DNA of 32,816 nt from Gammaproteobacteria bacterium (GTDB lineage Bacteria; Pseudomonadota; Gammaproteobacteria; SZUA-229): positions 1-32,816 of the forward strand of contig DRLE01000267.1 of assembly GCA_011051475.1 (NCBI GenBank), written 5' to 3'. Each line of letters begins with the position of its first letter. Position 1 is the first letter of the stretch. Below the pieces are notes generated by a model that saw only the letters and a list, made by a program, of their open reading frames with translations, had not been told where the DNA came from and did not search any database. A program made the position numbers and the translations under genes. Of this stretch, positions 5,315-31,047 are shown piece by piece.

Positions 5315-5391
<77 letters not shown>

Positions 5392-17426: not shown

Positions 17427-17948
17427 ATGAAGAAACTGATCGCCTTTATCAACAAACTTGAAGATACGCTGCTGGTGCTTATCCTGAGCACCATGATTGT
17501 ACTGGCTATCTACCAGATTATTGCGCGCGATATTTTTTCCGAGGGTGTGGTCTGGATTGATCCTTTTTTGCGTATGCTGGTGCTGTGGGTCGGTCTTGCC
17601 GGCGCGGTAGTGGCTACCCGTACCGACAATCATATCCGCATTGATATTCTCACCCGTCACCTGCCGAAAAAGCTTCAGTTTTATACGCAGCGATTTATCT
17701 ACCTGTTTACCCTTTCCATCTGCCTGTTAATTGCCTGGCATGCCGGTCGTTTTGTGCTCAGTGAATACGAATACCACACCATGGCGTTTTCCGGCATGCC
17801 CGCCTGGATAAGTGCACTGATAATTCCCGTGGCCTTTTTTCTTATTGCCCTGCGTTACCTGGTGCTGCTGTTTGCACCGGTAAAACTGCCGCCGGTGCCT
17901 GTGCCGGTACAGGATATCGATGAAATTGATAAGGATGTGAAGTCGTGA
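17427..17948 (+). CDS. dctQ: TRAP transporter small permease (DctQ)
   Basis: About four TM segments; LWVGLAGA...HIRIDIL. ATG 17427 is preferred over TTG 17409. Confidence 0.9.
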   Translation: MKKLIAFINKLEDTLLVLILSTMIVLAIYQIIARDIFSEGVVWIDPFLRMLVLWVGLAGAVVATRTDNHIRIDILTRHLPKKLQFYTQRFIYLFTLSICLLIAWHAGRFVLSEYEYHTMAFSGMPAWISALIIPVAFFLIALRYLVLLFAPVKLPPVPVPVQDIDEIDKDVKS

Positions 17949-19222
17949 TCAGCAGCCTGATTCTGCTGATACTGGTTGTTCTGGGCACGCCGTTGTTTGC
18001 GATTATTGCCAGCAGTGCGCTTATTGGTTTTTACAGCGAGGATATCGACCTGTCGGTGATTGCCATCGAGATCTACCGTATCGTCGATACGCCGGTGCTG
18101 CTGGCCATTCCCCTGTTTACCTTTGCCGGCTATGTACTGGGAGAAAGCAATGCCTCACAGCGCCTGGTGCGTCTGACCGACGCACTGCTCGGCTGGATGC
18201 CCGGTGGCCTTGCCGTGGTATCCCTGTTTGCCTGCGCCTTCTTTACCGCCCTGACGGGTGCTTCAGGCGCTACCATTATTGCCCTGGGTGCCATTCTGTA
18301 TCCGGCGATGAAGCAGGCCGGCTATAATGAGCGCTTCAATCTCGGCCTGATTACCTCGTCCGGCAGCCTGGGTCTGCTGTTCCCGCCCTCTATCGCCCTT
18401 ATCCTGTACGGTGTTATCGCCCAGCAGATGGATCTTGACGAAACCGTCGCCATCGACCAGCTGTTTATTGCCGGTCTGCTGCCGGGGCTGTTAATGCTGG
18501 TTTTGCTGGTGCTGTGGAGCATGTACAGAAGCGTCGGTGACAAAATCGAAACCAAGCCTTTCGATGCCGCAAAACTGAAAAGCGCCATGCGTGAGTCACT
18601 CTGGGAGATTCCCCTGCCGATTATTCTGGTCGCTGGTATCTATACCGGTTATTTCGCGGTATCAGAGGCGGCTGCCGTGGCGGTTATGTATGTGCTGATA
18701 GTGGATGTACTGATTTTGCGCGAGGTCAGCTTTAAGCAGCTTCCGGCCATTATGCGCGATTCCATGATACTGGTCGGCGGGGTGCTGATTATCCTGTCGG
18801 TATCACTGGCATCAACCAATTATCTGATCGATACCGAAGTACCGACCAGGCTGTTCGACTTTATCCGTGAACATATCGACAGCAAGCTGACCTTCCTCAT
18901 GCTGCTCAATATTTTTCTGCTGCTGCTTGGCATGATCCTGGATATCTTCTCGGCACTGGTGATTATTGTGCCGCTGACACTGCCGATAGCCGTCGGCTAC
19001 GGTATTCATCCCATACATTTCGGCATTATCTTCCTGGCCAATATGCAGATCGGTTACTTCACACCGCCGGTCGGCATGAACCTGTTTATCGCCAGCTATC
19101 GCTTTAACAAGCCGATCAGCGAACTGTATATGGCGACCATACCCTTTATGCTGATTCTGTTCCTCGCCGTGCTCATTATTACCTACTGGCCGGCATTGAC
19201 CATGGTGCTGGTTGAGGGTTAG
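17945..19222 (+). CDS. dctM: TRAP transporter large permease (DctM)
   Basis: LLAIPLFTFAG, SGSLGLLFPPSI, GIHPIHFGII...IGYFTPPVGMNLF. GTGA overlap with dctQ. Confidence 0.95.
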   Translation: MISSLILLILVVLGTPLFAIIASSALIGFYSEDIDLSVIAIEIYRIVDTPVLLAIPLFTFAGYVLGESNASQRLVRLTDALLGWMPGGLAVVSLFACAFFTALTGASGATIIALGAILYPAMKQAGYNERFNLGLITSSGSLGLLFPPSIALILYGVIAQQMDLDETVAIDQLFIAGLLPGLLMLVLLVLWSMYRSVGDKIETKPFDAAKLKSAMRESLWEIPLPIILVAGIYTGYFAVSEAAAVAVMYVLIVDVLILREVSFKQLPAIMRDSMILVGGVLIILSVSLASTNYLIDTEVPTRLFDFIREHIDSKLTFLMLLNIFLLLLGMILDIFSALVIIVPLTLPIAVGYGIHPIHFGIIFLANMQIGYFTPPVGMNLFIASYRFNKPISELYMATIPFMLILFLAVLIITYWPALTMVLVEG

Positions 19223-19231
19223 GTAAGGCGT

Positions 19232-19413
19232 AAAAGCTGAACCGCGGAGGCGCAGAGAAAAGCTTTTCTTTGTTTTCTGTCATTGATGGCGTTGTGGAGT
19301 CATACCAGAATGTACTACTGTTCACGGCCTTATCGAGATTGCTTCGCTACGCTCGCAATGACCGACCGCCAGTAAAAAACTCTGCGCCTCTGCGCCTCTG
19401 CGGTTCAGCTTTT
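19232..19413. repeat. Periodic-arm palindromic element A
   Basis: Left arm AAAAGCTGAACCGCGGAGGCGCAGAG (19232-19257) and right arm CTCTGCGCCTCTGCGGTTCAGCTTTT (19388-19413) match at 25/26 as inverted repeats. Internal GAGATTGCTTCGCTACGCTCGCAATGAC at 19335-19362. Confidence 0.9.
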
Positions 19414-19419
19414 TATGTT

Positions 19420-20004
19420 TCAGGCACTGCTCTTGCGAGCCTCGAAATCCTGCTCGCGCCATTTATTGACATGATAGCGCTTTAGGGTCACATCATCGTG
19501 CCAGAAATCCGCCGGCAGACCGGCTTTCAGTTTCAGGTGGGCCATAAACTCGGCCGGTTTCGGCAGCTGCTCCCAGACCTGGGGCAGAAAGGTGCTGCGA
19601 TAGGGGCCGTACTCAAAAACAATACCATCAACACCGGGTTGCAGTTGTGCCAGAGCGTCGGCTTCGCTGCTGAAGGTCATTTTTTCTGGCGGCGACAGCA
19701 GGGAAACCTCGATGTCGATATCATCAAATTCTGCCGCACTCAATGGCGGAAAACGCGGGTCGCCGAAGGCGGCGGATCGGGCATTTTCGACCACATCTTC
19801 CAGCAGGCTGCGCCTGGCTTCCAGCGAGCCGATGCAGCCGCGCAGTTCACCGTGTTTCGTCAGGGTGACAAAGGTGGCGGCCCGCTCCTGCAGCCAGTCA
19901 TCATTATCATCGATGTCTACCGCTGGCCAGTCCAGACCAAGGCGCTCGGCAATGGCGGCGCGAGCCAGCTGTAGCAGTATTTTTGCACGCTCCTTATCGA
20001 TCAT
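19420..20004 (-). CDS. amrA: AmmeMemoRadiSam system protein A (AMMECR1 family)
   Basis: ATFVTL...LRGCIGSL, AAFGDPRFPPL, IEVSLLS, TFLPQVWEQL...LKLKAGL. Confidence 0.93.
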   Translation of the reverse strand: MIDKERAKILLQLARAAIAERLGLDWPAVDIDDNDDWLQERAATFVTLTKHGELRGCIGSLEARRSLLEDVVENARSAAFGDPRFPPLSAAEFDDIDIEVSLLSPPEKMTFSSEADALAQLQPGVDGIVFEYGPYRSTFLPQVWEQLPKPAEFMAHLKLKAGLPADFWHDDVTLKRYHVNKWREQDFEARKSSA

Positions 20005-20819
20005 GATCGAGTCTCATTATCGTCTTCTTCATAGAAGGCAAAAGCGGCATAGCCGACGACACGGCTTTTATCACCCGATGTGTCACCGGAATTGCACAGA
20101 TTCAGCAGTTCGGGCTTGAGGTGGTGACGCCGGGCAGCCAGCAGAAAACCGTTGATCGGCGTGCCACCACAGGCCTGCTCATGGCTGAGCGAACTCTGCA
20201 TGGCCAGTATGGTTTTCACGGTCTGGGAGTCGACCTGGCGTGCGTTTTCATACGGCAGGAAATGAGACAGATCGGAACTGATCACGATCAGCGTTTCCGG
20301 CCCATCCCAGAGGATATCCAGTACCTCGGCAATTTCCGATGGCGTGGCGTCACCCACTGCCAGTGGCAGCAGGCTGAAGTCATCCAGCACTGCCTGCAGG
20401 AACGGCAGCTGGACCTCCAGAGAGTGTTCACGCTCATGCGCCTGCGGACTCAGTACCACCTGGGGCAGGTGGGCGATGGCCTGTATGGCTTCCTGGTCGA
20501 TATTGATTTCACCCAGCGGTGTGGCAAAGACATCGGCGCCGGGCAGCGCCAGTCCCCGCACCGGGACATAATGCACCGGGCCGAGCAGGATCACGCGTTT
20601 GATTATATGACTCCAGTTCTGAAGTTGTGCATAGGCGGTTGCCGCGGTTGAACCGGAATAGATGTAACCGGCATGCGGTACAATCAGCGCCTTGGGTGGC
20701 GTGTGGTGCGTTGTACGGGGTTCTGCCAGTTGCAACAGAGTGTTAACATCACTGAGCAGCTGTTGCCTCTGGCCGTTATAGAAGGCCCCTGCGACAGCGG
20801 GTGGACGTATCTGATGCAT
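20001..20819 (-). CDS. amrB: AmmeMemoRadiSam system protein B (MEMO1 family)
   Basis: RPPAVAGAFY, PHAGYIYSG, EHSLEVQLPFLQ, ISSDLSHF, ACGG, VVGYAAF. Confidence 0.94.
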   Translation of the reverse strand: MHQIRPPAVAGAFYNGQRQQLLSDVNTLLQLAEPRTTHHTPPKALIVPHAGYIYSGSTAATAYAQLQNWSHIIKRVILLGPVHYVPVRGLALPGADVFATPLGEINIDQEAIQAIAHLPQVVLSPQAHEREHSLEVQLPFLQAVLDDFSLLPLAVGDATPSEIAEVLDILWDGPETLIVISSDLSHFLPYENARQVDSQTVKTILAMQSSLSHEQACGGTPINGFLLAARRHHLKPELLNLCNSGDTSGDKSRVVGYAAFAFYEEDDNETRS

Positions 20820-20903
20820 AATAATCTCCTCTGAGAATAGATAAACCGGCCAGAAACCGTAGTTTTCTTATATCTATAATGAGGATTTGAAGCAGAATAT
20901 CAA

Positions 20904-21155
20904 GTGAAAGATCGGGAGAGCAATGTGGAAGACTACCAGCCAATCGCCTGTGCCCTGCATGATGAATATGAAATAGCGATTATGCATAAAAGCATTCTGC
21001 AGCTGCAATGGCATGACGAGGATGGCAGCCTGCACAGGAGCCGGGTGCTGCCGGTTGATATCAGGGCGCAGGACGGCGCGGAGTATCTGCTGGTAAAAGA
21101 GCCGGGAGATGAGGCGGTGCAGTGGATTCGGCTGGACAGGATCAAGGTTTTATAA
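20904..21155 (+). CDS. rof: Rho-binding antiterminator Rof (YaeO family)
   Basis: YQPIACALHDEYEIA...AEYLLV...IRLDRI. Alternative GTG start at 20925. Confidence 0.85.
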   Translation: MKDRESNVEDYQPIACALHDEYEIAIMHKSILQLQWHDEDGSLHRSRVLPVDIRAQDGAEYLLVKEPGDEAVQWIRLDRIKVL

Positions 21156-21173
21156 ATCTGCAATCGGGGAAGT

Positions 21174-21339
21174 TTTTCTCTGTAAAGGCGCAGAGAAACG
21201 TTTCCTGTTTTTTTGTAGGAGCGGCATTCATTCCGCGAATATCAGCCTGAGCCAGAGGTATGCTCGTGGAATTGCCCACTCCCACAAAGCAATAAAACAA
21301 AAAGCTTTTCTCTGTGTTCTCTGTGTCTCTGTGGTAAAT
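21174..21339. repeat. Periodic-arm palindromic element C with nested GTAG REP-like doublet
   Basis: The right arm reverse complement is ATTTACCACAGAGACACAGAGAACACAGAGAAAAGCTTTT. The left arm is degenerate: AGGCGCAGAGAAACGTTTCC. Internal TTTGTAGGAGCGG...CCACTCCCACAAA at 21212-21288. Confidence 0.8.
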
Positions 21340-21371
21340 TGTTGTAAGCTTTCCCTTCGCGAAACTGGCGG

Positions 21372-22148
21372 CTAAAAAGCCCGCTGCCACCACGTCGGCA
21401 GCTCAGCCACCGAGTCCAGCACTTCATCGGGACGGATGCCCAGATCCAGGTCGCTTTCCCTGAACTTGCCGGTGCGCACCAGTATGGCCTTCAGTCCGGC
21501 CTTTTGCGCCGCTTCAATGTCGCCGCGAATATCATCACCGATCATGACCAGTTCATCCATGCCCAGCAGCTGTCTGGCCGCATTGAAGAAGGTTCGCGCC
21601 GGTTTGCCGGTTACTACGGCTTCACGGTCGCTGGCGTATTCAAAAGCCTTTACCATGGGGCCGACATCAAGTTGCAGCTGGCCGCTGGCGGTTTGCCAGT
21701 AACGGGTCATGCCCAGGGCAATGAGTTCCGCCTGCGGGTTATTAACCAGCAGGTGGAAGACATGATTCATGGTTGTAAAGTCCCATTGCTCGCCAAGGTC
21801 GCCAATGATGACGGCATCGACCGTATCGTTCTCATTGCTGTGCAGTTCGAAGCCGGAAAACTCTCCCGCTGTTTGCTCGGGAACGAACAGGGCAATGCGC
21901 TTCAGTTTTTTTTCCTGCAGCCACTGGCAGGCTGCAACCGGCGGGGTCAGGAAATCGTCGCTTCGGCTATGAATGCCATAGCCGGCAAGCCTGTCCACCA
22001 GGGCGCTGCGGGGTCTGGATGTGGTATTGGTGAGAAACAGGTGAGGAATATTGTTGTCGACAAACCAGCGTACCGCGTCAGCAGCGCCGTCAATGGCCCT
22101 GTCGCCTTCATAGAGTACGCCGTCGAGGTCAAACAGCATGGCCGGCAT
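21372..22148 (-). CDS. HAD-IIA family hydrolase (LHPP-like)
   Basis: FDLDGVLY, FLTNTT, GKP, MIGDDIRGDIEAAQKAGL...VRTGKF. Confidence 0.9.
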   Translation of the reverse strand: MPAMLFDLDGVLYEGDRAIDGAADAVRWFVDNNIPHLFLTNTTSRPRSALVDRLAGYGIHSRSDDFLTPPVAACQWLQEKKLKRIALFVPEQTAGEFSGFELHSNENDTVDAVIIGDLGEQWDFTTMNHVFHLLVNNPQAELIALGMTRYWQTASGQLQLDVGPMVKAFEYASDREAVVTGKPARTFFNAARQLLGMDELVMIGDDIRGDIEAAQKAGLKAILVRTGKFRESDLDLGIRPDEVLDSVAELPTWWQRAF

Positions 22149-22230
22149 AACAGGCTTCTCCGGGTTTTATATAACACCTGCAAATAGTGTACTGATATAA
22201 CCCCGGGCGGACAAGCCCGTTGCCAGCAGT

Positions 22231-23964
22231 CTACGATTCACATTCCTTGAATATAAGTACGTTACAGTCTTCACAAATGTCTTTATCAAGACGTTTGTAT
22301 ATTTCATGTATGGCTTCGCTCTTTGAATCAAAGAAATGGTCGGGACCGATTTCCTTGATAAAGCAGGTACGGGCGGCGAATTCGTAGACGGTGGATTTGA
22401 GTGCGACAAAGTACAGTCCACCACCTTTCTTTTTAAGCTGATTGTTTTCCTCGACCAGGCCTTCGGCGCCGGCAAGGTCGATAAAGTTAATACCGCTGGC
22501 GACAATCAGGATATGGTAGATGCGCTCATGTTCAACGATCTGTGCAATGCGCTTCTGGATATGGTTGATGGAGCCAAAGTACACCGACATGTCAATGCGG
22601 ATGATTTTCAGCTGCGGGCACTGGTTGATCGGTTTCTTGTCGATATTGATCAGTTTGCGGGCACCGGTTTGCGGATCAACATCGACGGACAGGGTAGGAA
22701 TCCTGGGTGTTGATGTTTTTGACAGAAAGAAGACCAGGGAAAGAATCACGCCGGCATAGATGGCAAATTCCAGTTCCAGGGTCAGGGTGGCAATGAACGT
22801 AACGGTCAGAATTGCGGCTTCAGCCTTGCTGAATCTGAAGGTGTTTCTGATATGGTGGAAATCAATCAGGTTATAGGCCACCAGCAGAATAACGCCGCCC
22901 ATGGCGGCAATCGGCAGATAGGCGGTAAGCGGCGCGATCAGCAGCACAATCAGCATCAGCGAGATGGCCGCAAAGATGGCCGACAAGGGCGTTTTTGCAC
23001 CGGCTTCATAGTTAATGCCGGAGCGGGTAAATGAGCCGGAACCGGCATAGGCGGAGAAGAAACTGCCGACCATATTCGACAGACCCTGGCCGATAAACTC
23101 CTGGTTGGCGTCTATGCGCTGGCTCGACTTGGTCGCAACCGCACGGCTGATGGACACCGCTTCGATCAGGCCGAGCAGGGAAACCGCAAAGGCATCCGGC
23201 GCCAGATCGCGTATGGTGTTGTAGGAGAAATCAGGCATTGAAGGCGGCGGCAGTTGCGCGGGAATCTCGCCCACCAGTTTGATACCATCGGTAAAGTTAT
23301 CCAGGTACAGAGCAATAAGACTGCCAACGATCATGCCCAGCAGCAGGTTGGGAGATCTTGGCATCAGGCGTTTAGTCACAATTGCGGTAATCAGGGTGGC
23401 AACAGCGATAACCACCAGGTAAATATTGATCTGGTCGAATTCGGTGGCTATGTCATACCAGGTATGGGCAAAAGACTCACCCTTGGGAATGGTAATGCCG
23501 AGTACGTGTTTCATCTGGCTGGTGGCAATGAGTATGGCTGCGCCGGCGGTAAAGCCGGCAACCACATTGTGTGAAACAAAGTTAACCAGTGAGCCCAGGC
23601 GAGCAATACCGAAGCCCAGCTGATAGGCCCCGGCAAGGAAGGTCAGAGTCAGGGCCATCTGGATATATTCCGGTGTACCGGGTTCGGCATGGCCGCTTAC
23701 CGTGGAAAAGACCACAATCGAAATTGCTGTCGTCGGACCGGAAATCAAATGGTGCGAGGAGCCAAACAGAGCGGCAATAATCGGCGTGACCATTGCGGTG
23801 TAAAGGCCGTATTCTGGAGGCAGGCCGGCGATGGTGGCAAAGGCCACGCCCTGAGGCAGAACGATTACCGCGCCGGTAAAGCCGGCGATAAGGTCGTCTT
23901 TTATAGTTGACGCATTGACTAATTTAAACCATTGTAGAAAAGGGAGGAACCTGGCTACCTGCAT
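22231..23964 (-). CDS. SulP/SLC26 family anion transporter with STAS domain
   Basis: DLIAGFTGAVIVLPQGVAFATIAGLPPEYGLY, NQEFIGQGLSN, GSFTRS, STAS INFIDLAG. Likely start is ATG 23964. Confidence 0.95.
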   Translation of the reverse strand: MQVARFLPFLQWFKLVNASTIKDDLIAGFTGAVIVLPQGVAFATIAGLPPEYGLYTAMVTPIIAALFGSSHHLISGPTTAISIVVFSTVSGHAEPGTPEYIQMALTLTFLAGAYQLGFGIARLGSLVNFVSHNVVAGFTAGAAILIATSQMKHVLGITIPKGESFAHTWYDIATEFDQINIYLVVIAVATLITAIVTKRLMPRSPNLLLGMIVGSLIALYLDNFTDGIKLVGEIPAQLPPPSMPDFSYNTIRDLAPDAFAVSLLGLIEAVSISRAVATKSSQRIDANQEFIGQGLSNMVGSFFSAYAGSGSFTRSGINYEAGAKTPLSAIFAAISLMLIVLLIAPLTAYLPIAAMGGVILLVAYNLIDFHHIRNTFRFSKAEAAILTVTFIATLTLELEFAIYAGVILSLVFFLSKTSTPRIPTLSVDVDPQTGARKLINIDKKPINQCPQLKIIRIDMSVYFGSINHIQKRIAQIVEHERIYHILIVASGINFIDLAGAEGLVEENNQLKKKGGGLYFVALKSTVYEFAARTCFIKEIGPDHFFDSKSEAIHEIYKRLDKDICEDCNVLIFKECES

Positions 23965-24112
23965 TATTTTTCCAGTATGAATGTAAGTTATTGAAAATAA
24001 GGGTCTAAAAAACAAATTATTTTATAAGGATATTCTGTTTTAGACTATATACCAATCTGAATAGAGTGGCTTTAAAGGCTGTGTCGGGGCGATGCATTCC
24101 CGAAAATCGAGT

Positions 24113-24385
24113 TTATCCTTCAGCCGTCAGGTCTCTTAGTTTTTCGTTCAGTTCGACGGAATTATGCGTATCGATTTCCAGGGTTTTACGTGATGCTGTC
24201 AGCCCGCTGGCGATGGAAATACTGCCTTTGGGCAGTTGCAGTGCTTTTTCCAGAAATTTAATCACGGCCTTGTTGGCCCGGCCTTTTTCCGGCGGCGCTT
24301 TTACCTTGATCTTCAGGGTTTCACCCAGCCAGCCGGCAAAGGCGTCGCGTGATGATGAGGGAATAACCTTGATCTGCAGTTTCAC
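24113..24385 (-). CDS. DUF167/UPF0235 (YggU-like) protein
   Basis: LQIKVIPSSSRD...LKIKVKAPPEKGRANKAV...GLTASRK. Confidence 0.9.
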   Translation of the reverse strand: MKLQIKVIPSSSRDAFAGWLGETLKIKVKAPPEKGRANKAVIKFLEKALQLPKGSISIASGLTASRKTLEIDTHNSVELNEKLRDLTAEG

Positions 24386-24393
24386 GGGAGTTT

Positions 24394-25368
24394 TCAGCCT
24401 GTGCTGTCATCCTGCTGCCCGGACTCATCGACACGCTGCCAGTTTTCATCCACCAGCACCACCTCGTGTTTGGCCCAGCGGGAAAATTCGTTCTTGCTCA
24501 TGACGCCGGAACTGCGTCGCCCGGCGCCGGCCACGGTCTTGTAGATCAGTTGTTCCTCGCCGCTGTCATCGTCTGCCTCTGACCAGTCTACGATCTGGCG
24601 GACCGACCACAGCTTGCCGTATTCACCGTTACTGTAATAATGACCGTTTTTGAGCTGGTGATGCGCAAGAGGGCGGGTATGGTGGTGTTTGATAACCAGG
24701 TCATAAATGGTCAACAGATCGCTTTCGGTAATGTCGAGGAAGGAGTCGAACTCGCTAAGGGCATAGACAAAGTCTTCATGCGTAATGGTTTCACGCGTGG
24801 GTGCTTCCTCATCCGGCTCGGGTTCGGCCTTCGGCAGTTTCGCCAGGTAGGCGGGATAGCGCCGCCACCTGAACAGGTAATTAAAGGCGATGGCAATGGC
24901 CAGAATCGTGACGACATTGATCATGGCCGGGGTCAGCACATACTGGTAGCCGAGCGCATGCACCGACTCACCGCCGACAACGGCCGACAGCGCCGTGGCG
25001 CCACCGGGCGGATGCACACAGTTAAGGTAGTACATGGTCGAAACGGCAATGCCTACGGCCAGTGGGGCCGCAATAAAAACATCCGGAATGTATTTTGCGC
25101 AGCTCACGCCGACAATGGCCGAGAAAAAATGTCCGCCGATCAGCGCCCAGGGCTGGGAAAGTGGCCCATGCGGCACGGCAAACAGCAGTACCGCAGAAGC
25201 GCCCATGGAGGCGACAATAATATAGGTGGCCACGCCCTCGACGAAAAAGCTGCTGGTATAGAACACCGCGAAAATCCCGAAAAACGCGCCCAGGCCGGAG
25301 ATCAGTTTTTCGGTATGACCGGTGCGGTATGGCGGCAGGCCGAGGAAGTTGATCAGGGTTTTGTGCAT
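24394..25368 (-). CDS. HPP family membrane protein with extra C-terminal domain
   Basis: ASMGASAVLLFAVPHGPLSQPW, CVHPPGGATAL, then a soluble C-terminal region. Confidence 0.9.
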   Translation of the reverse strand: MHKTLINFLGLPPYRTGHTEKLISGLGAFFGIFAVFYTSSFFVEGVATYIIVASMGASAVLLFAVPHGPLSQPWALIGGHFFSAIVGVSCAKYIPDVFIAAPLAVGIAVSTMYYLNCVHPPGGATALSAVVGGESVHALGYQYVLTPAMINVVTILAIAIAFNYLFRWRRYPAYLAKLPKAEPEPDEEAPTRETITHEDFVYALSEFDSFLDITESDLLTIYDLVIKHHHTRPLAHHQLKNGHYYSNGEYGKLWSVRQIVDWSEADDDSGEEQLIYKTVAGAGRRSSGVMSKNEFSRWAKHEVVLVDENWQRVDESGQQDDSTG

Positions 25369-25401
25369 ATTTCAAAGTGTTGTGGTGGTCGTGTCGGAGT
25401 G

Positions 25402-25593
25402 TTTTTTTGAACCACAGAGGACACAGAGGTACACAGAGGAAAAGCTTTTTATTGTTTTTTCCTTCATTGCGAGCGCAGCGAAGCAATCTCGAAATGGTTG
25501 CTGCGGAGCGAGATTCATCGTTAGGTTCGTAAACGGTACATCCCTAAAAACAAAAACTCTGTGTACCTCTGTGTCCTCTGTGGTTCAAAAAAA
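25402..25593. repeat. Periodic-arm palindromic element B (perfect 37-bp terminal inverted repeat)
   Basis: TTTTTTTGAACCACAGAGGACACAGAGGTACACAGAG (25402-25438) is the exact reverse complement of 25557-25593. Internal TCATTGCGAGCGCAGCGAAGCAATCTCGA at 25464-25492. Confidence 0.95.
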
Positions 25594-25614
25594 TATATCA
25601 ACCAGACCCAGACC

Positions 25615-27579
25615 TCAGGCCTTACCCTGCAACTGCGCAATCACCGCCTCGTTCTCCAGCGTCGAGGTATCCGAGGTGATTTCCTCACCGGCGGCGATGG
25701 TGCGCAGCAGGCGGCGCATGATCTTGCCTGAGCGGGTTTTGGGCAGGCCTTCGGCAAAGCGGATGTCATCCGGCTTGGCGATGGGGCCGATCTGTTCGCC
25801 GACCCAGTCGCGAAGCTCCTTCGCCATTTTCTCTGCCGCTTCGCCGGTCGGACGTTCGCCCTTGCAGATAACAAAGGCAACAATGGCTTCGCCCTTGACC
25901 TCATGCGGGCGACCCACGACGGCGGCTTCGACCACGGCATCGTGTGCCACCAGCGCCGACTCGACTTCCATGGTACCGAGGCGGTGCCCGGAAACATTCA
26001 GCACATCATCGATACGGCCCATAATCCAGAAATAGCCATTCTCGTCGCGCCGCGCACTGTCGCCGGCGAGGTAGTACTTGCCGCCGAACTTGGGGTAATA
26101 GGTATCGGCATAACGCTGGTCATCGCCCCAGACGGTGCGCAGCATAGAGGGCCAGGGCTTTTTGATCACCAGATAGCCACCGGTATTGGCCTCGGTGATG
26201 GATTCGCCTTCCTCGTTGACCACGTCCGCCATCATGCCGGGCAGGGGCAGGGTGCAGGAGCCGGGCTTGGTCGCAGTGACGCCGGGAACCGGGCTGATCA
26301 CATGGGCGCCGGTTTCGGTCTGCCACCAGGTATCAACGATCGGACAGTTCTCCTTGCCGATCACCGTGTGATACCACATCCAGGCCTCCGGATTAATCGG
26401 TTCACCCACGGTGCCCAGCAGGCGCAGCGAGGACAGGTCATAGCTGTTGGGGAAATCATCGCCCAGTCTCATCAGGGCGCGGATGGCCGTCGGCGCCGTG
26501 TAGAAAATGGTCACCTTGTGTTCTTCCACCATTTTCCAGAAACGCCCGCCATCGGGAATGACCGGCGCGCCTTCATACATCACAATGGTGCTGGCGGCTG
26601 CCAGCGGGCCATAGGCGACATAGGTGTGGCCGGTGATCCAGCCGACATCGGCGGTACACCAGAATATGTCTTCATCGCGCAGGTCGAATACCCACAGATT
26701 GGTGGTAATGGCGTTAAGCAGATAGCCGGCACTGGCATGCTGGATGCCCTTGGGCTTGCCGGTTGAGCCGGAGGTATAGAGCAGAAACAGCGGGTGCTCG
26801 GCATTGACCCAGACCGGTTCACATTCGTTGCTCTGGCCGGCAATCGCGTCAGACCACCAGATATCACGGCCTTCCTGCATGGCGATATCATGGCCGGTGC
26901 GTTTCAGTACGATAACGTTCTTGATACAGTCACAACCACTGCTCAGTGCCTTGTCGGCCGCTTCCTTCAGCGGTACGATCTTGCCGCCGCGAGTGCCGCC
27001 ATCGGCGGTAATCAGCATCACCGCCTGCGCGTCTTCAATACGGTCACGCAGTGACTCGGCGGAAAAACCACCAAACACCACGGATTGAACCGCGCCGATA
27101 CGCGCGCAGGCCTGCATGGCAATCACCGCCTCGGGCACCATCGGCATATAGATCACCACGCGGTCACCTTCCCTGATGCCATGAGCCTTAAGAGCATTGG
27201 CAAATTCGCAGACTTCATCGTGCAGCTGCTGGTATGTCAGCTTGCGCACATCACCGCCTTCGCCTTCAAAGATAATCGCGGTTTTATCAGCGTGTTTTGC
27301 CAGATGGCGGTCGATGCAGTTATAGCTGACATTCATCTCACCATCGCTGAACCATTTAAAATGCGGTGCGTTGGATTCGTCCAGCGTTTGCGTGAACGGC
27401 TTCTGCCAGTCAATCAGTTCCCTGGCCAGGTCGGCCCAGAAACCCTCGTAGTCTTCTTCCGCGCGTTTATGCAGGGCGGCGAGGTCATCGGGCTTGATAC
27501 GAGCCCTGGCGGTAAATTCCGCACTGGGTTTGAACAGACGGTTTTCGATTAAAACAGAATTGATTTCAATGCCGGACAC
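25615..27579 (-). CDS. acs: Acetyl-CoA synthetase (acetate-CoA ligase)
   Basis: [58 protein letters not shown]. Confidence 0.97.
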
Positions 27580-27683
27580 GGTGGAATTCCTCTTGTTTTT
27601 GGCTTTGTTATTAGGGGTTTAGCATACACTGTGTGGGGCGAAAGTTCTATTGCCGATGTGAGCGCCGGGGAAAGCGCTTTGGG

Positions 27684-27942
27684 TTCGCAAATAACGCAAA
27701 AGACGCGAAAAAAGCTAAAAGCAGTTCACCACAGAGACACAGAGGCCACAGAGTTATAGTAATGTCGCCCTGAGTGGAACGCAGTAAAGTCGAAGGGGCT
27801 TATACTATTGTGTTTTCAGTAGTAGGCCGGCATAAGGAACGTTGCCGGCTTTTTTCATCCATTCGCCGGCAACGTTCCTTATGCCGGCCTACGAATATAT
27901 TATGTCTGAGCCGGGGTGTTTTTTTGCGCCTTTCGCGGCTAA
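27684..27942. repeat. Periodic-arm compound element D
   Basis: Left arms TTCGCAAATAACGCAAAAGACGCGAAAAAA (27684-27713) and TTCACCACAGAGACACAGAGGCCACAGAG (27725-27753). Right arm TTTTTTTGCGCCTTTCGCGGCTAA (27919-27942). Confidence 0.8.
27822..27892. repeat. GTAG-family REP doublet (REPIN-like)
   Basis: Perfect 28-bp inverted pair GTAGGCCGGCATAAGGAACGTTGCCGGC / GCCGGCAACGTTCCTTATGCCGGCCTAC. Each unit is GTAG followed by its own GCCGGCA...TGCCGGC hairpin. Confidence 0.9.
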
Positions 27943-28817
27943 ACAATCATTTTCGATTTCTGCGGTACCCGGCCAATATCCCAGTGCGTTAGCGACCACA
28001 GCCATATATCCTCCAGGCTGCTGCCGGCAAGTTCGCTCGGCGGCTGCTGGCCAAGAAAATCCAGTGCCCTGATCAGTAATTTTTCTCTGTCTTTGATATC
28101 TACCCGGCTGGCACCTTCCGACTTGCTGATTTTATTGCCATGCGCATCCACCGCCAGTGGCAGGTGCGCATATTGCGGTGTCGGGTAGCCCAGTTTCTGT
28201 TGCAGATAGATCTGTCTTGCGGTGGAATCGAGCAGATCGGCGCCACGTACGATCTCGGTCACACCCTGCAGGGCATCATCGACCACCACCGCCAGCTGGT
28301 AGGCAAACAGGCCATCGCGACGTTTGATAATAAAGTCACCGCATTCACTGGCCAGTGCCTGCTGTTGCTCGCCCATAATAATGTCGTTAAAGCGGATCGT
28401 AACTGCCTCTGTACACAGACGCAGTGCATGTTCATTCTGTTCCGGCATTGATCGCTGGCGACAGGTGCCGGGATAAACGGCCAGGCCGGCCAGCTGCTTG
28501 CGTGAACAGGTGCAGGGAAAGACAAGTTTCTGTGACAGCAGGCTGTCTAGCGCCTGCTGGTAAAGCTCGGTGCGCTGTGATTGATAAAGTACATCGCCCT
28601 GCCACTCAAAGCCAAAGGCTTCCAGTGTTTTCAGTATATCCGTATCCGCGCCTTCCACCCTGCGCGTGGTATCCACATCCTCCATACGCAATAACCAGTC
28701 GCCGCTGTTCGCTTTAGCCTGCAGATAACTGCCGACCGCGGCCAGCAACGTACCGAAGTGGACAGGGCCGGTGGGTGAGGGGGCGAAGCGGCCGATGTAG
28801 GTGGATGGAATGTGCAT
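27939..28817 (-). CDS. gluQ: Glutamyl-Q tRNA(Asp) synthetase
   Basis: GRFAPSPTGPVHFG, LRMEDVD, CTCSRK...YPGTCR, YQLAVVVDD, VRGADLL, KISKS. 292 aa with no anticodon-binding domain. Confidence 0.95.
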   Translation of the reverse strand: MHIPSTYIGRFAPSPTGPVHFGTLLAAVGSYLQAKANSGDWLLRMEDVDTTRRVEGADTDILKTLEAFGFEWQGDVLYQSQRTELYQQALDSLLSQKLVFPCTCSRKQLAGLAVYPGTCRQRSMPEQNEHALRLCTEAVTIRFNDIIMGEQQQALASECGDFIIKRRDGLFAYQLAVVVDDALQGVTEIVRGADLLDSTARQIYLQQKLGYPTPQYAHLPLAVDAHGNKISKSEGASRVDIKDREKLLIRALDFLGQQPPSELAGSSLEDIWLWSLTHWDIGRVPQKSKMIV

Positions 28818-28827
28818 TATGCGGTTA

Positions 28828-28866
28828 TTTTAGCCGCGAAGAACGCGAAGTGCGCAAAAAAAAGCA
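28828..28866 (+). repeat. Periodic arm E (left boundary of VPLPA-CTERM cassette)
   Basis: TTTTAGCCGCGAAGAACGCGAAGTGCGCAAAAAAAAGCA; inverted partner at 30303-30343. Confidence 0.8.
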
Positions 28867-28870
28867 CTTG

Positions 28871-28899
28871 AAAAAAAGAGCCTGATCAAGTCAGGCTCT
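28871..28899 (-). terminator. Intrinsic terminator of VPLPA-CTERM gene
   Basis: AGAGCCTGA-TCAAG-TCAGGCTCT with an A-tract on the left (a U-tract on the minus strand). Confidence 0.8.
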
Positions 28900-28924
28900 G
28901 TTGGTTGGTAATACGTGTAACCGT

Positions 28925-29779
28925 TCAGCAGGTTGCGCAGTTTTTCCGCCTTTTCTGAATACCAACCAGTCCGACCAGACCTGATGCAAACAACCACAGT
29001 GAGGCAGGCAAGGGCACGGCAGAAACATTACTTGTATAGCCGGGGTCAAGATTGAAGCCATTGAAGGAAAGGCTGGCGCTGATGGCGGCATCAGCGCTGG
29101 CCTGATTTGTTGTGTACCAGAACTCAAAGGTGTAGGGAGTGTTGAGCAATACGCTGATACTGCTGGTTGTCAGATTGGGTGCAACACTGATGTTATCGCC
29201 ACCAGGCGCGGAATTGTAGCTTTCCTGCTGAAAGTAATAACTACCTCCACGACAGTTATAGGAACAGACATCAGTTGGCTGATACAGGCTCATGCCGCCA
29301 CCAATGGCAATGCTGTAACTGGGGGTGGTGCTTGGTGTTCCCAGTTTGGCGTTCACCAGGGTTGTCACTAGCGTGCTGCTGCGGGTGAAATTGGCGCTAA
29401 CATTGATCCAGCCAGTATCCGTTCCGTTGATTGACGAGAAGATGACATCTTCCATGATGATGCGCCCCGTGACTTCAGGTATTTCGTAGGAGCCGAAAAA
29501 CCAGGCATCCGGGTTGTGCACGACTTCGATATAATTCTGGATGGTATTGCCGCTGGCGCTGGCCTCACCATAAATCTTTACATCGCCGCGACTGACCGTA
29601 TAAGCTGCGGCAGTGGCTCCTGCATTACCCGTATTATAATCAAAAACGGGTCCTGAGCCGACCTGGCCGACGCCAGCGCTGTAAATCGTTGCGGCATTAA
29701 CCGTGCCGGCAAGCAGGAGCATGGCCAGAGCGCTTGTTCCGGTGATCCTGGCAGAGAGTGATAAGTGTTTTCTGTTCAT
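28925..29779 (-). CDS. Exosortase-sorted surface protein (VPLPA-CTERM / PEP-CTERM class)
   Basis: Signal peptide ending VNA-A, Ser/Thr/Asn/Gly-rich body, C-terminus VSAVPLPASLWLFASGLVGLVGIQKRRK. Confidence 0.9.
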   Translation of the reverse strand: MNRKHLSLSARITGTSALAMLLLAGTVNAATIYSAGVGQVGSGPVFDYNTGNAGATAAAYTVSRGDVKIYGEASASGNTIQNYIEVVHNPDAWFFGSYEIPEVTGRIIMEDVIFSSINGTDTGWINVSANFTRSSTLVTTLVNAKLGTPSTTPSYSIAIGGGMSLYQPTDVCSYNCRGGSYYFQQESYNSAPGGDNISVAPNLTTSSISVLLNTPYTFEFWYTTNQASADAAISASLSFNGFNLDPGYTSNVSAVPLPASLWLFASGLVGLVGIQKRRKNCATC

Positions 29780-30024
29780 GAGCTTATCTCCTTATAAATC
29801 GGGGCAATGTAGCATTGCTTACATCGGTGCCAGCTGATTTGGTACATAGCTTCGGTTGTGTCGAAGCCAAATGTGTGACGTTCTAGCACGGAGTTAAGTA
29901 TGGTGTATTGGAGTCCGGTATTCTATCCCATATTTATGGGATGCAGATTCAATGTGTCGGATGGTATGCCCGGTTAATGAATAACCACCTTTAACAGCGC
30001 AAGACAGACTGGGCGGTAAACAGA

Positions 30025-30118
30025 AAATATATCATTCTCCTGATCGAGGACGATGACATTACCCGCCAGCGCTGCCATGGCACACCAGTTGCTCAAGCGT
30101 TCTCACATTGAATCGTAG
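30025..30118 (+). pseudogene. Possible response-regulator receiver-domain remnant
   Basis: Reads KYIILLIEDDDITRQR, like receiver beta1-alpha1. There is an in-frame TAA upstream (29992-29994) and the frame ends after about 28 codons. Confidence 0.35.
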
Positions 30119-30258
30119 GGATGGAAAAAGATCTCGCTCCTACAATGTTTTTTCGCTTTAGCCAGGATTGGCAGGATGATTAACTTTTGTGAGTGCTATT
30201 CCAGTATGAAGTGGCATAAGACCTCTTCGGCTACGCACAGAGTGACAAACTAAAAATA

Positions 30259-30343
30259 TTTGCGTTTATTCGCGTTCATTTGCGGAAAAAAAAACCGGCT
30301 TTTGCTTTTTTTTTTGCGCCTTTCGCTTTCTTCGCGGCCAGAA
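30259..30343 (-). repeat. Periodic arms F1 and F2 (right boundary of VPLPA-CTERM cassette)
   Basis: F1 reverse complement: TTTTCCGCAAATGAACGCGAATAAACGCAAA. F2 reverse complement: TTCTGGCCGCGAAGAAAGCGAAAGGCGCAAAAAAAAAAGCA. Confidence 0.8.
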
Positions 30344-30344
30344 A

Positions 30345-30374
30345 CAAAAAAGCCGGCAGAAACGACCGGCTTTT
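30345..30374 (-). terminator. Intrinsic terminator after dksA
   Basis: AAAAGCCGG-CAGAAACGA-CCGGCTTTT with an A-tract on the left. Confidence 0.7.
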
Positions 30375-30397
30375 CGTTAAACACAACAGCGCAAAAG

Positions 30398-30832
30398 TTA
30401 CTTCCCGCGCGTCTGCTTCTCCTTGATTTCATCCAGGCTCTTGCAGTCGATGCACTGTGTTGCGGTAGGACGTGCCTCCATGCGGCGCAGGCCGATTTCG
30501 ACGCCGCAGGTTTCGCAGTAGCCGTACTCGCCGGTGTTCATCAGGGCGAGAGTATCGTCGATTTTCTTGATGAGTTTGCGTTCGCGGTCGCGGGTGCGCA
30601 GTTCGAGGCTGAATTCTTCTTCCTGGGTAGCGCGGTCAGCGGGGTCGGGAAAGTTGGCGGCTTCGTCTTTCATGTGGTCCACGGTGCGGTCGACTTCCGA
30701 CATCAGCTCCATTTTCCAGGCATTGAGGATTTCCCTGAAGTGCTTGAGCTGCGCTTCATTCATGTATTCTTCACCTTTTTTCTCTTTATAAGGCTTAAAG
30801 GTGTGGTTTGTAATTGGCGCTGTATTTGCCAT
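30398..30832 (-). CDS. dksA: RNA polymerase-binding transcription factor DksA
   Basis: NFPDPADRATQEEEF (DxxDxA tip) and a 4-Cys zinc finger CETC...CIDC. Confidence 0.98.
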   Translation of the reverse strand: MANTAPITNHTFKPYKEKKGEEYMNEAQLKHFREILNAWKMELMSEVDRTVDHMKDEAANFPDPADRATQEEEFSLELRTRDRERKLIKKIDDTLALMNTGEYGYCETCGVEIGLRRMEARPTATQCIDCKSLDEIKEKQTRGK

Positions 30833-31047
30833 CTAGAACTCCAGTGTTTCTTGGTGTGTATTTTCTGGATTAAATAAAATCAATAACTTAGGTGTATCTT
30901 TTTCGGTATAAATTTTTGCGAGCGACTATTTACCATAAATTTGCGGCCTATTGCAAATAAAGTGGCTGAATGGCGCCGCCCGATATGCCATTAAATTCAA
31001 TGCCTGTTCTGTCATTATCGCACCAATGTTCGGGGCGAAAACAGTAA

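Follow-up and report, generated by a model that had tools for sequence, protein, structure and literature searches.

Gene-less palindromic elements of a gammaproteobacterial genome as probable members of a pan-bacterial GxxExxY-type family

The window analysed here, a whole contig of 32,816 nucleotides (DRLE01000267.1, our C267) from a Gammaproteobacteria bacterium of the SZUA-229 lineage (assembly GCA_011051475.1), carries five palindromic loci, elements A to E, whose arms are built of short tandem units. We regard these as probable gene-less derivatives (non-autonomous and resembling MITEs, the miniature transposable elements with inverted repeats) within a pan-bacterial family of small palindromic elements of GxxExxY type. 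A full-length member would hold one GxxExxY PD-(D/E)XK nuclease-like gene between inverted arms of two to four tandem 8–10-nt CRCRRAR units. Judged by the sequence anatomy of the arms, membership of the family is well supported; that the GxxExxY protein itself mobilises the elements is a tenable but distinctly more tentative proposal. The genome to which the window belongs (G000) is a 2.24-Mb draft in 279 contigs, with 54.7% G+C and a completeness of 79%; its gluQ relatives point to an uncultured gammaproteobacterium. The relevant features of the window are:

19232–19268, plus strand: element A, left arm; AAAAGCTGAAC, two units (CGCGGAGG, CGCAGAG) and inner AAAAGCTTTTC, 9 nt past the dctM stop codon (open reading frame (ORF) 17945–19222)
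19380–19413, minus strand: element A, right arm; three CGCAGAGG units, then GTTCAGCTTTT, 6 nt before the stop codon of the AMMECR1 gene (19420–20004, minus strand)
21173–21339, no strand assigned: element B; degenerate left arm, good right arm
25402–25593, no strand assigned: element C; perfect 37-bp inverted repeat (25402–25438 against 25557–25593), three CACAGAGG units per arm
27686–27939, no strand assigned: element D; outer CGC-type arms at 27686–27710 and 27922–27939
28833–28863, plus strand: element E, left arm; GCCGCGAAGAACGCGAAGTGCGC followed by an A-run, at 15 nt from the start codon of gluQ
30304–30343, minus strand: element E, degenerate right arm; T-run, then GCGCCTTTCGCTTTCTTCGCGGC, read from the sequence and missed by the arm pattern
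28925–29779, minus strand: PEP-CTERM ORF with its own terminator-like hairpin, between the element E arms
30260–30285, minus strand: solo arm whose units are 10 nt long (CGCAAATGAA type), as found around the carA–carB GxxExxY gene in congeners

Arm anatomy and genome-wide pairing

The five loci lie where the initial annotation had placed them, with 12 arms counted once the solo arm of 10-nt units is included. Its descriptions of element C as a perfect 37-bp inverted repeat and of the element A arms (19232–19413) as identical at 25 of 26 positions both hold, and element B is indeed the exception with a degenerate left arm. That arm has a single CGCAGAG unit (21188–21196) followed by AAACGTTTCC, and the right arm (21300–21339) consists of AAAAGCTTTT and three CAC units, with a tgtaggagcgg-type module in the interior. 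Element C has GAAAAGCTTTTT inside its arms (25439–25450) and a gtcattgcgagcg module further in. The outer arms of element D surround a lone CAC-type arm (27730–27753) and an unrelated 28-bp perfect palindrome (27822–27892) that resembles repetitive extragenic palindromic (REP) sequences; the right arm and the gluQ stop codon share one base. In element E the true partners are 28833–28855 and 30316–30338 (GCCGCGAAGAAnGCGAAGnGCGC, then an A-run), separated by 1.45 kb. Folding energies are low for element A as DNA (-46.4 kcal/mol for the whole element, z -6.5) and for element C as RNA (-102 kcal/mol, z -12.85).

Nested palindromic modules are common throughout G000 (gtcattgcgagc, 52 half-sites; gtcatcctgagc, 78; gtaggagcgg, 25) and often sit inside tandem-unit elements, in the window at 19334–19362 and 25466–25494. 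The palindrome at 27822–27892 is of the GTAGGCCGGCATAAGG... type, a separate REP family with 34 half-sites in G000.

A scan of G000 with the periodic arm pattern (CRCRRAR N1–3, at least two repeats) recovered 324 arms; the control, G000 reversed without complementation, gave 36. This establishes the genome-wide family that had been anticipated from the window. By type, 167 arms carry CACAGAGG units, 139 CGCAAAG/CGCGAAA and 18 CGCAGAGG. Adjacent arms at most 600 bp apart are overwhelmingly head-to-head: 113 pairs are '+-', against 6 tail-to-tail ('-+'), 7 '--' and 6 '++', an excess of inverted pairing that the initial annotation had expected. Both arms share a unit type in 108 of the 113 head-to-head pairs, likewise as claimed, and partners are closer to one another than to shuffled partners of the same subfamily. 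For CAC-type arms the partner identity is 0.94, against 0.891 after shuffling (maximum of 200 shuffles, 0.901), with 12 perfect pairs where shuffles average 1.6 and reach 6 at most; for CGC-type arms it is 0.853 against 0.81 (maximum 0.846). The interiors of the 113 pairs span 4–334 bp, and no genes were found within them. Four more distant arm pairs in G000 enclose possible cargo, each with one to three long called ORFs inside.

The elements share a common layout. They open with T-rich sequence that closes on (A/C)AC or GC, and two or three units come next, with (G)AAAAGCTTTT and a further T-rich part behind them. The centre is occupied by a GC hairpin or by nested palindromic modules. Beyond it lie A-rich sequence, the units in complementary form and GT(T/G), the last leading into more A-rich sequence. 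The word AAAAGCTTTT occurs 62 times in G000, against one to nine occurrences for each of nine other AAAANNTTTT words counted. When folded, a complete element would form a single long hairpin. We considered intrinsic terminators and rejected them: on either strand a T-run precedes the hairpin and an A-run follows it, the reverse of terminator order.

Placement is strongly intergenic, in keeping with the bias first noted for the window, where the gluQ-abutting arm reaches the stop codon by its single overlapping base. By the calls of a crude ORF caller, 15.8% of arm bases fall inside genes, against 87.5% of G000 that is coding. Of the 113 pairs, 35 lie in convergent spacers, 48 in tandem, 7 in divergent and 23 at contig edges; against a background of 300, 1161 and 291 spacers of the first three kinds, pairs are over-represented where genes converge. 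From an arm to the neighbouring stop codon the median distance is 23.5 nt. An arm lies within 300 bp of 41 of the 558 contig ends, and contigs built from four DNA runs over window 19000–30900 break at arms, with depth raised in most arm-holding bins. The joints listed at arms either skip interiors only or run to other copies.

GxxExxY genes between such arms, and a sister class

The initial annotation had suggested a link between similar arms and GxxExxY-family genes, and surveys inside and outside the class bear it out. PF13366 (GxxExxY) genes were found in 30 of 201 gammaproteobacterial genomes sampled at one per family; arms of CRCRRAR units surround the gene in 19 of the 21 best loci, taken from other gammaproteobacterial families (exceptions L085 and L089). 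A cross-phylum survey gave at least 600 matched stretches, and 596 of the 600 matches listed encode a relative; 79 of the best 80 had usable flanks. Across these 79 loci, from more than ten phyla, an inverted repeat of at least 16 nt spans the gene in 51, and 38 of the 51 (38 of the 79 overall) hold at least two cores in both arms. The CRCRRAR core and an outer (T/G)NAC-C junction recur beside GxxExxY genes in more than ten phyla, and the window arms match both. An alphaproteobacterial arm (L192) is near-identical to window 25405–25438, and L083 and L192 are near-identical to G000 subtypes. Conservation of the unit core across phyla means that sequence matters, and not pairing alone; the earlier suggestion that 'pairing and periodicity, rather than exact sequence' are conserved was thus too strong.

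Within the genus, the gene is found in 23 of 33 congeners, all 13 high-quality genomes among them. Most of 17 genus loci have such arms (the arrays are co-directional in L108 and poor in L119). Nine loci house the gene in the carA–carB spacer, with 10-nt units; a second orthologous site has CGCAGAGG units, and CACGAAGG or CACAGAG units are used elsewhere. The GxxExxY protein matches TIGR04256 at 145.6 bits, with G20, E23, Y26, D63 and E73-x-K75 invariant over 12 sequences. Its structure model is confident (pLDDT 95.7), and fold matches are weak, every one of them a PD-(D/E)XK nuclease. Sequence searches against solved structures and against phage records gave no match, and PADLOC nothing beyond faint Cas4-like matches (E ≥ 0.001). 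On the protein tree, CAC/CGC arm type changes six times (shuffles: mean 10.7, minimum 7) and tail type eight times (mean 16.1, minimum 10), a fit that beats all 300 shuffles but is inflated by kinship.

A second gene family is flanked in a similar manner. The single four-helix-bundle gene of G000 ('23S IVS protein'; PF05635; TIGR02436, 94.7 bits) lies between murA and hisG, enclosed by inverted arms in which GAAAAGCGTTTTT comes after GTGAATAG units. Across the genus there are 27 four-helix-bundle genes above cut-off. The flanks of all 27 loci, one with an incomplete upstream flank, bear tandem 7-nt units (15-nt in one), and 9-mer seeds are common to both flanks in 22. At the orthologous murA–hisG site the unit varies by species (GTGAATAG, ATGAATAA or GTGAAAAA), both arms together. 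Class-wide, an inverted repeat of at least 16 nt crosses the gene in 18 of 29 loci (one further locus left out of the count), with period 7 in all 18. Gene-less counterparts occur here too: the same AGTGAAT heptamer has 27 gene-less inverted loci in G000, and other heptamer or decamer families about 23 more. One heptamer family, TTCGTCG/TTCGTCA (C124:13617-13748, C123:11456-11583 and C258:5978-6147), has a 5' arm formed by the pyrimidine-rich array, a polarity opposite to that of the other families, whose 5' arms are purine-rich.

Mobility, orthologous spacers and rival readings

Transposition is directly visible in one congener, G045 (97% complete). It carries three GxxExxY copies with a near-identical 490-bp core at unrelated loci. 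The element reaches outer terminal repeats GGGTCTATGYCAT, which have 65 matches in G045 against 1 and 1 in controls. Fifteen gene-less copies of about 110–250 bp were read, and all except L244 hold CAC units between the terminal repeats. The interior of L245, the sole gene-less copy aligned, matches about 65 nt of the 3' end of the GxxExxY gene, identifying it as an internal-deletion derivative. AT-rich 8-bp target duplications are perfect in five copies and match at 7/8 in six more. The full-length elements and gene-less derivatives of G045, with their 8-bp target duplications, represent real transposition. Among the matches listed, no pair of the terminal repeats is of insertion sequence (IS) size, and the only coding members carry GxxExxY.

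Abundance varies widely among relatives. With the CAC pattern, 19 genomes of the genus (G000 among them) and 12 other families of the class were surveyed; the pattern is present in 17 of 18 congeners, with 0 to 171 matches each and 260 in G000, and in 1 of the 12 other families, against 0–4 matches for reversed-pattern controls. The comparison of filled and empty sites proposed by the initial annotation could be made around gluQ, where the order dksA–gluQ–acs–HPP is conserved and congener coding DNA is about 66–83% identical (about 75–79% across acs). The acs–gluQ spacer is 359 bp with element D in the window and an arm-free 88–94 bp in four congeners (L021, L025, L027, L032). The HPP–acs spacer is 246 bp with element C and an arm-free 11–78 bp in five (L025, L041, L044, L030, L043). 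At gluQ–dksA, most congeners carry an element beside the gluQ start, of varying unit type (CAC, CGC or 10-nt), and in the window the two arms are split by 1.45 kb bearing the PEP-CTERM gene. The spacers listed for congeners, 111–365 bp, are too short for this ORF, so the element interior may be an insertion hotspot. Near gluQ in Neisseriaceae (including Vogesella), inverted pairs of CACGAAA/CACAAAA units (L016 10447–10547, L018 11852–11952) extend the family to Betaproteobacteria.

How might such elements work? The GxxExxY protein would bind the tandem units, each a repeat of its target site, and would act in trans on gene-less copies. Every element would form one long hairpin, with pairing maintained. 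Located downstream of a gene, it would be co-transcribed into a long double-stranded stem, and by analogy with the 23S rRNA intervening sequences that bear the four-helix-bundle sister cargo, this stem may be a substrate of RNase III.

The initial annotation's proposal of a non-autonomous mobile family is borne out in part, by the gene-less paired elements and by the mobility seen in G045; mobility within G000 itself would be conjectural. Several results weigh against reading the window elements as mobile derivatives of this kind. At no offset between 0 and 39 did G000 show an 8-bp target duplication (2 of 68 elements at best), which extends to the whole genome the absence of a clear duplication first noted in the window. 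Whole-element comparison yields one pair of near-identical copies, most likely a single locus assembled twice, and the outer terminal repeat of the G045 transposon (GGGTCTATG...) is absent from G000. In 24 simple CAC elements, arm identity is 0.92 and interior identity 0.62, against 0.54 for shuffled sequence. Interiors hardly above the shuffled level suggest that the G000 copies are old, or are not products of whole-element copying. About two-thirds of CAC interiors keep the same shape (T-rich, GC hairpin, A-rich) with differing stems. PF13366 has no match in G000, a 79%-complete assembly in which carA and carB themselves are unassembled. A coding parent sharing the element ends is seen in congeners, and none was found in this assembly. 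Given this absence and the gene-free interiors, the window elements are gene-less members at most. GxxExxY is also kept at orthologous sites throughout the genus, carA–carB for example. In arm mismatches, G:U shows no bias toward the transcribed strand, the counts being 13 against 14 in one comparison and 9 against 13 in another, so selection on RNA gains no support. Lastly, we know of no route by which a nuclease of about 120 residues could achieve strand transfer.

These points lend some weight to other explanations. The elements might be ordinary MITEs that a conventional DDE-type transposase mobilises in trans, with GxxExxY and its arms a passenger module. We consider this unlikely, although the 8-bp AT-rich duplication and the outer terminal repeats of about 37 nt in G045 are typical of standard transposases, the outer repeats are missing in G000 whereas the unit arrays are universal, and a minimal nuclease makes an improbable sole transposase. 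Against it, G045 has no IS-sized terminal-repeat pair among the matches listed and its only coding members bear GxxExxY; a random passenger would, moreover, not retain one arm core beside it in more than ten phyla. Somewhat less likely again is a host function, in which the loci are structural or regulatory hairpins maintained by the host (stabilisers of mRNA 3' ends, sites for RNase III or arrays that bind protein), inherited vertically, homogenised by gene conversion and no longer mobile here. Positions just past stop codons, enrichment between convergent genes and interiors that drift but remain hairpins while arms stay conserved at 0.92 would all fit, as would the want of target duplications or a recent copy in G000. 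The gluQ–dksA element, present in most congeners with a species-dependent unit type, and the covariation of arms at the orthologous murA–hisG and carA–carB sites point the same way, and RNase III is described as cutting the heptamer-armed intervening sequence of Coxiella (PMC4990558). Against this stand the reversed terminator order of T-run, hairpin and A-run, the missing G:U strand bias, the range from 0 to 260 pattern matches within a single genus and the arm-free spacers in congeners. A host function can be compatible with a mobile origin.

The remaining candidate, REP sequences and their paired forms (REPINs) moved by REP-associated tyrosine transposases (RAYTs, of the Y1 HUH type), is very improbable. 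The elements are intergenic palindromic repeats in inverted pairs, and G000 has three Y1_Tnp matches. An association with HUH/RAYT genes had been suggested for testing and is not found: the genes are present, and it is other repeats that flank them. The Y1_Tnp gene at C15:841-1182 has the GTAGGCCGGCATAAGG... repeat on both sides and that on C179 has ctcaggtgtcggagtc palindromes, with tandem-unit arms beside neither; the arms are also tandem arrays, unlike single GC-rich palindromes of 20–40 nt. Derivation from GxxExxY-type elements thus remains our preferred reading of the five loci.

The setting of the elements in the window is ordinary. Between 17.9 and 32.8 kb it encodes dctM, AMMECR1, Memo, a HAD hydrolase, SulP, an HPP-domain protein, acetyl-CoA synthetase, gluQ, the PEP-CTERM protein (a weak family match, 20.3 bits against a cut-off of 20.7), dksA and acrB. 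The sole match at gathering score in an Rfam scan of the window is a tRNA gene (5315–5388), with no rRNA detected. At E ≤ 1 the scan adds just sub-threshold microRNA-hairpin matches, four on the palindrome at 27820–27894 and one at 20718–20779. Upstream of acs, 40–70 nt from its start, a motif TAGCATACAC(T/G)GTGT...AAA(A/G)TTC (window about 27619–27652) is conserved at most of the 28 listed congener loci, although coding identity is about 75%, and is probably a regulatory site. In most congeners the HPP–acs interval holds about 450 bp of additional sequence that looks like a small gene and is absent from the window (L022, L024, L027–L029, L031, L033, L034, L036, L039, L040, L042).

Known systems and wider meaning

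The closest parallels are the intervening sequences of 23S rRNA in Coxiella and Leptospira, small elements with inverted arms, a long stem and one small ORF (S23p, a four-helix bundle). In Coxiella a 28-bp stem is cut by RNase III, two or three tandem heptamers (GACAGAT) lie in the region of the 5' arm, upstream of the four-helix-bundle ORF, and the origin of the sequence is termed unclear in the passages that treat it (PMC4990558). Heptamer arms also flank four-helix-bundle genes in our genomes. The window elements differ in lying between protein genes and having no ORF, and their 8–10-nt CRCRRAR units go with GxxExxY rather than with a four-helix-bundle gene. MITEs are likewise small, intergenic and numerous, with terminal inverted repeats; in G045 the likeness extends to 8-bp target duplications and to a gene-less copy that, by its alignment, derives from a coding parent by deletion. 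Unlike MITEs, the G000 elements have neither target duplication nor conserved interior, their arms are made of tandem short units, and the sole gene of the parent is PD-(D/E)XK-like and encodes no known transposase. With REPs, REPINs and bacterial interspersed mosaic elements (BIMEs) they share the form of extragenic palindromes, enrichment downstream of genes and a species-specific character that often occupies the same spacer in relatives; they are set apart by arms that are tandem unit arrays and by the other repeats that flank RAYT genes here.

Two further repeat families invite comparison. The GGGAATC arrays of Xanthomonas (Rehm et al. 2015, PMC4692102) are intergenic tandem heptamers that keep their position and vary in length among species, with 70 convergent inverted pairs in X. 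campestris. The passages on these arrays give their function as unknown and treat them as G-quadruplex motifs, linking no cargo gene to them (PMC4692102). Their unit resembles the four-helix-bundle-type arms (AGGGAAT, L210), not CRCRRAR. The TAACTGA repeats of Beggiatoaceae and cyanobacteria (MacGregor 2015, PMC4679880) are also abundant intergenic tandem heptamers spread across distant phyla, but in the sections describing them they form direct arrays just upstream of start codons, with 1 of 170 sets inverted. On the protein side, PF13366 appears as 'unknown' in the table that lists it (PMC3424549), and PF05635 is described in the relevant passage as resembling Avd of diversity-generating retroelements (PMC10053308). 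In the literature searched, which did not extend to the supplementary repeat tables of PMC4692102 and PMC4679880, we found no link between GxxExxY and flanking repeats. Mentions of TIGR04256, PDDEXK_3, TIGR02436, PF13366 and PF05635 say nothing on flanking repeats, and six arm strings were found just in eukaryotic work on unrelated topics. The NCBI text for TIGR04256 may mention such repeats.

A wider interpretation, about as tentative as mobilisation by GxxExxY itself, would make GxxExxY elements a new transposon class of about 0.5 kb, in which a PD-(D/E)XK nuclease of about 120 residues reads CRCRRAR units and moves itself and gene-less copies. The heptamer-armed four-helix-bundle elements, 23S rRNA intervening sequences included, would then form a sister class.

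A very abundant repeat family is now tied to a defined gene family of unknown function, and one arm-plus-gene module spans more than ten phyla. A comparison of arms that have GxxExxY with arms that lack it offers a concrete, cheap test system, and the arms are a predictable source of fragmentation in metagenome assembly. If the nuclease does mobilise the elements, the few mechanisms of prokaryotic transposition recognised so far would gain another class. How rRNA intervening sequences arose, which has gone unexplained for 30 years, would then be accounted for as well, and on the wider interpretation several 'orphan' repeat families, the Xanthomonas GGGAATC arrays and presumably cyanobacterial heptamers, would come under one mechanism.

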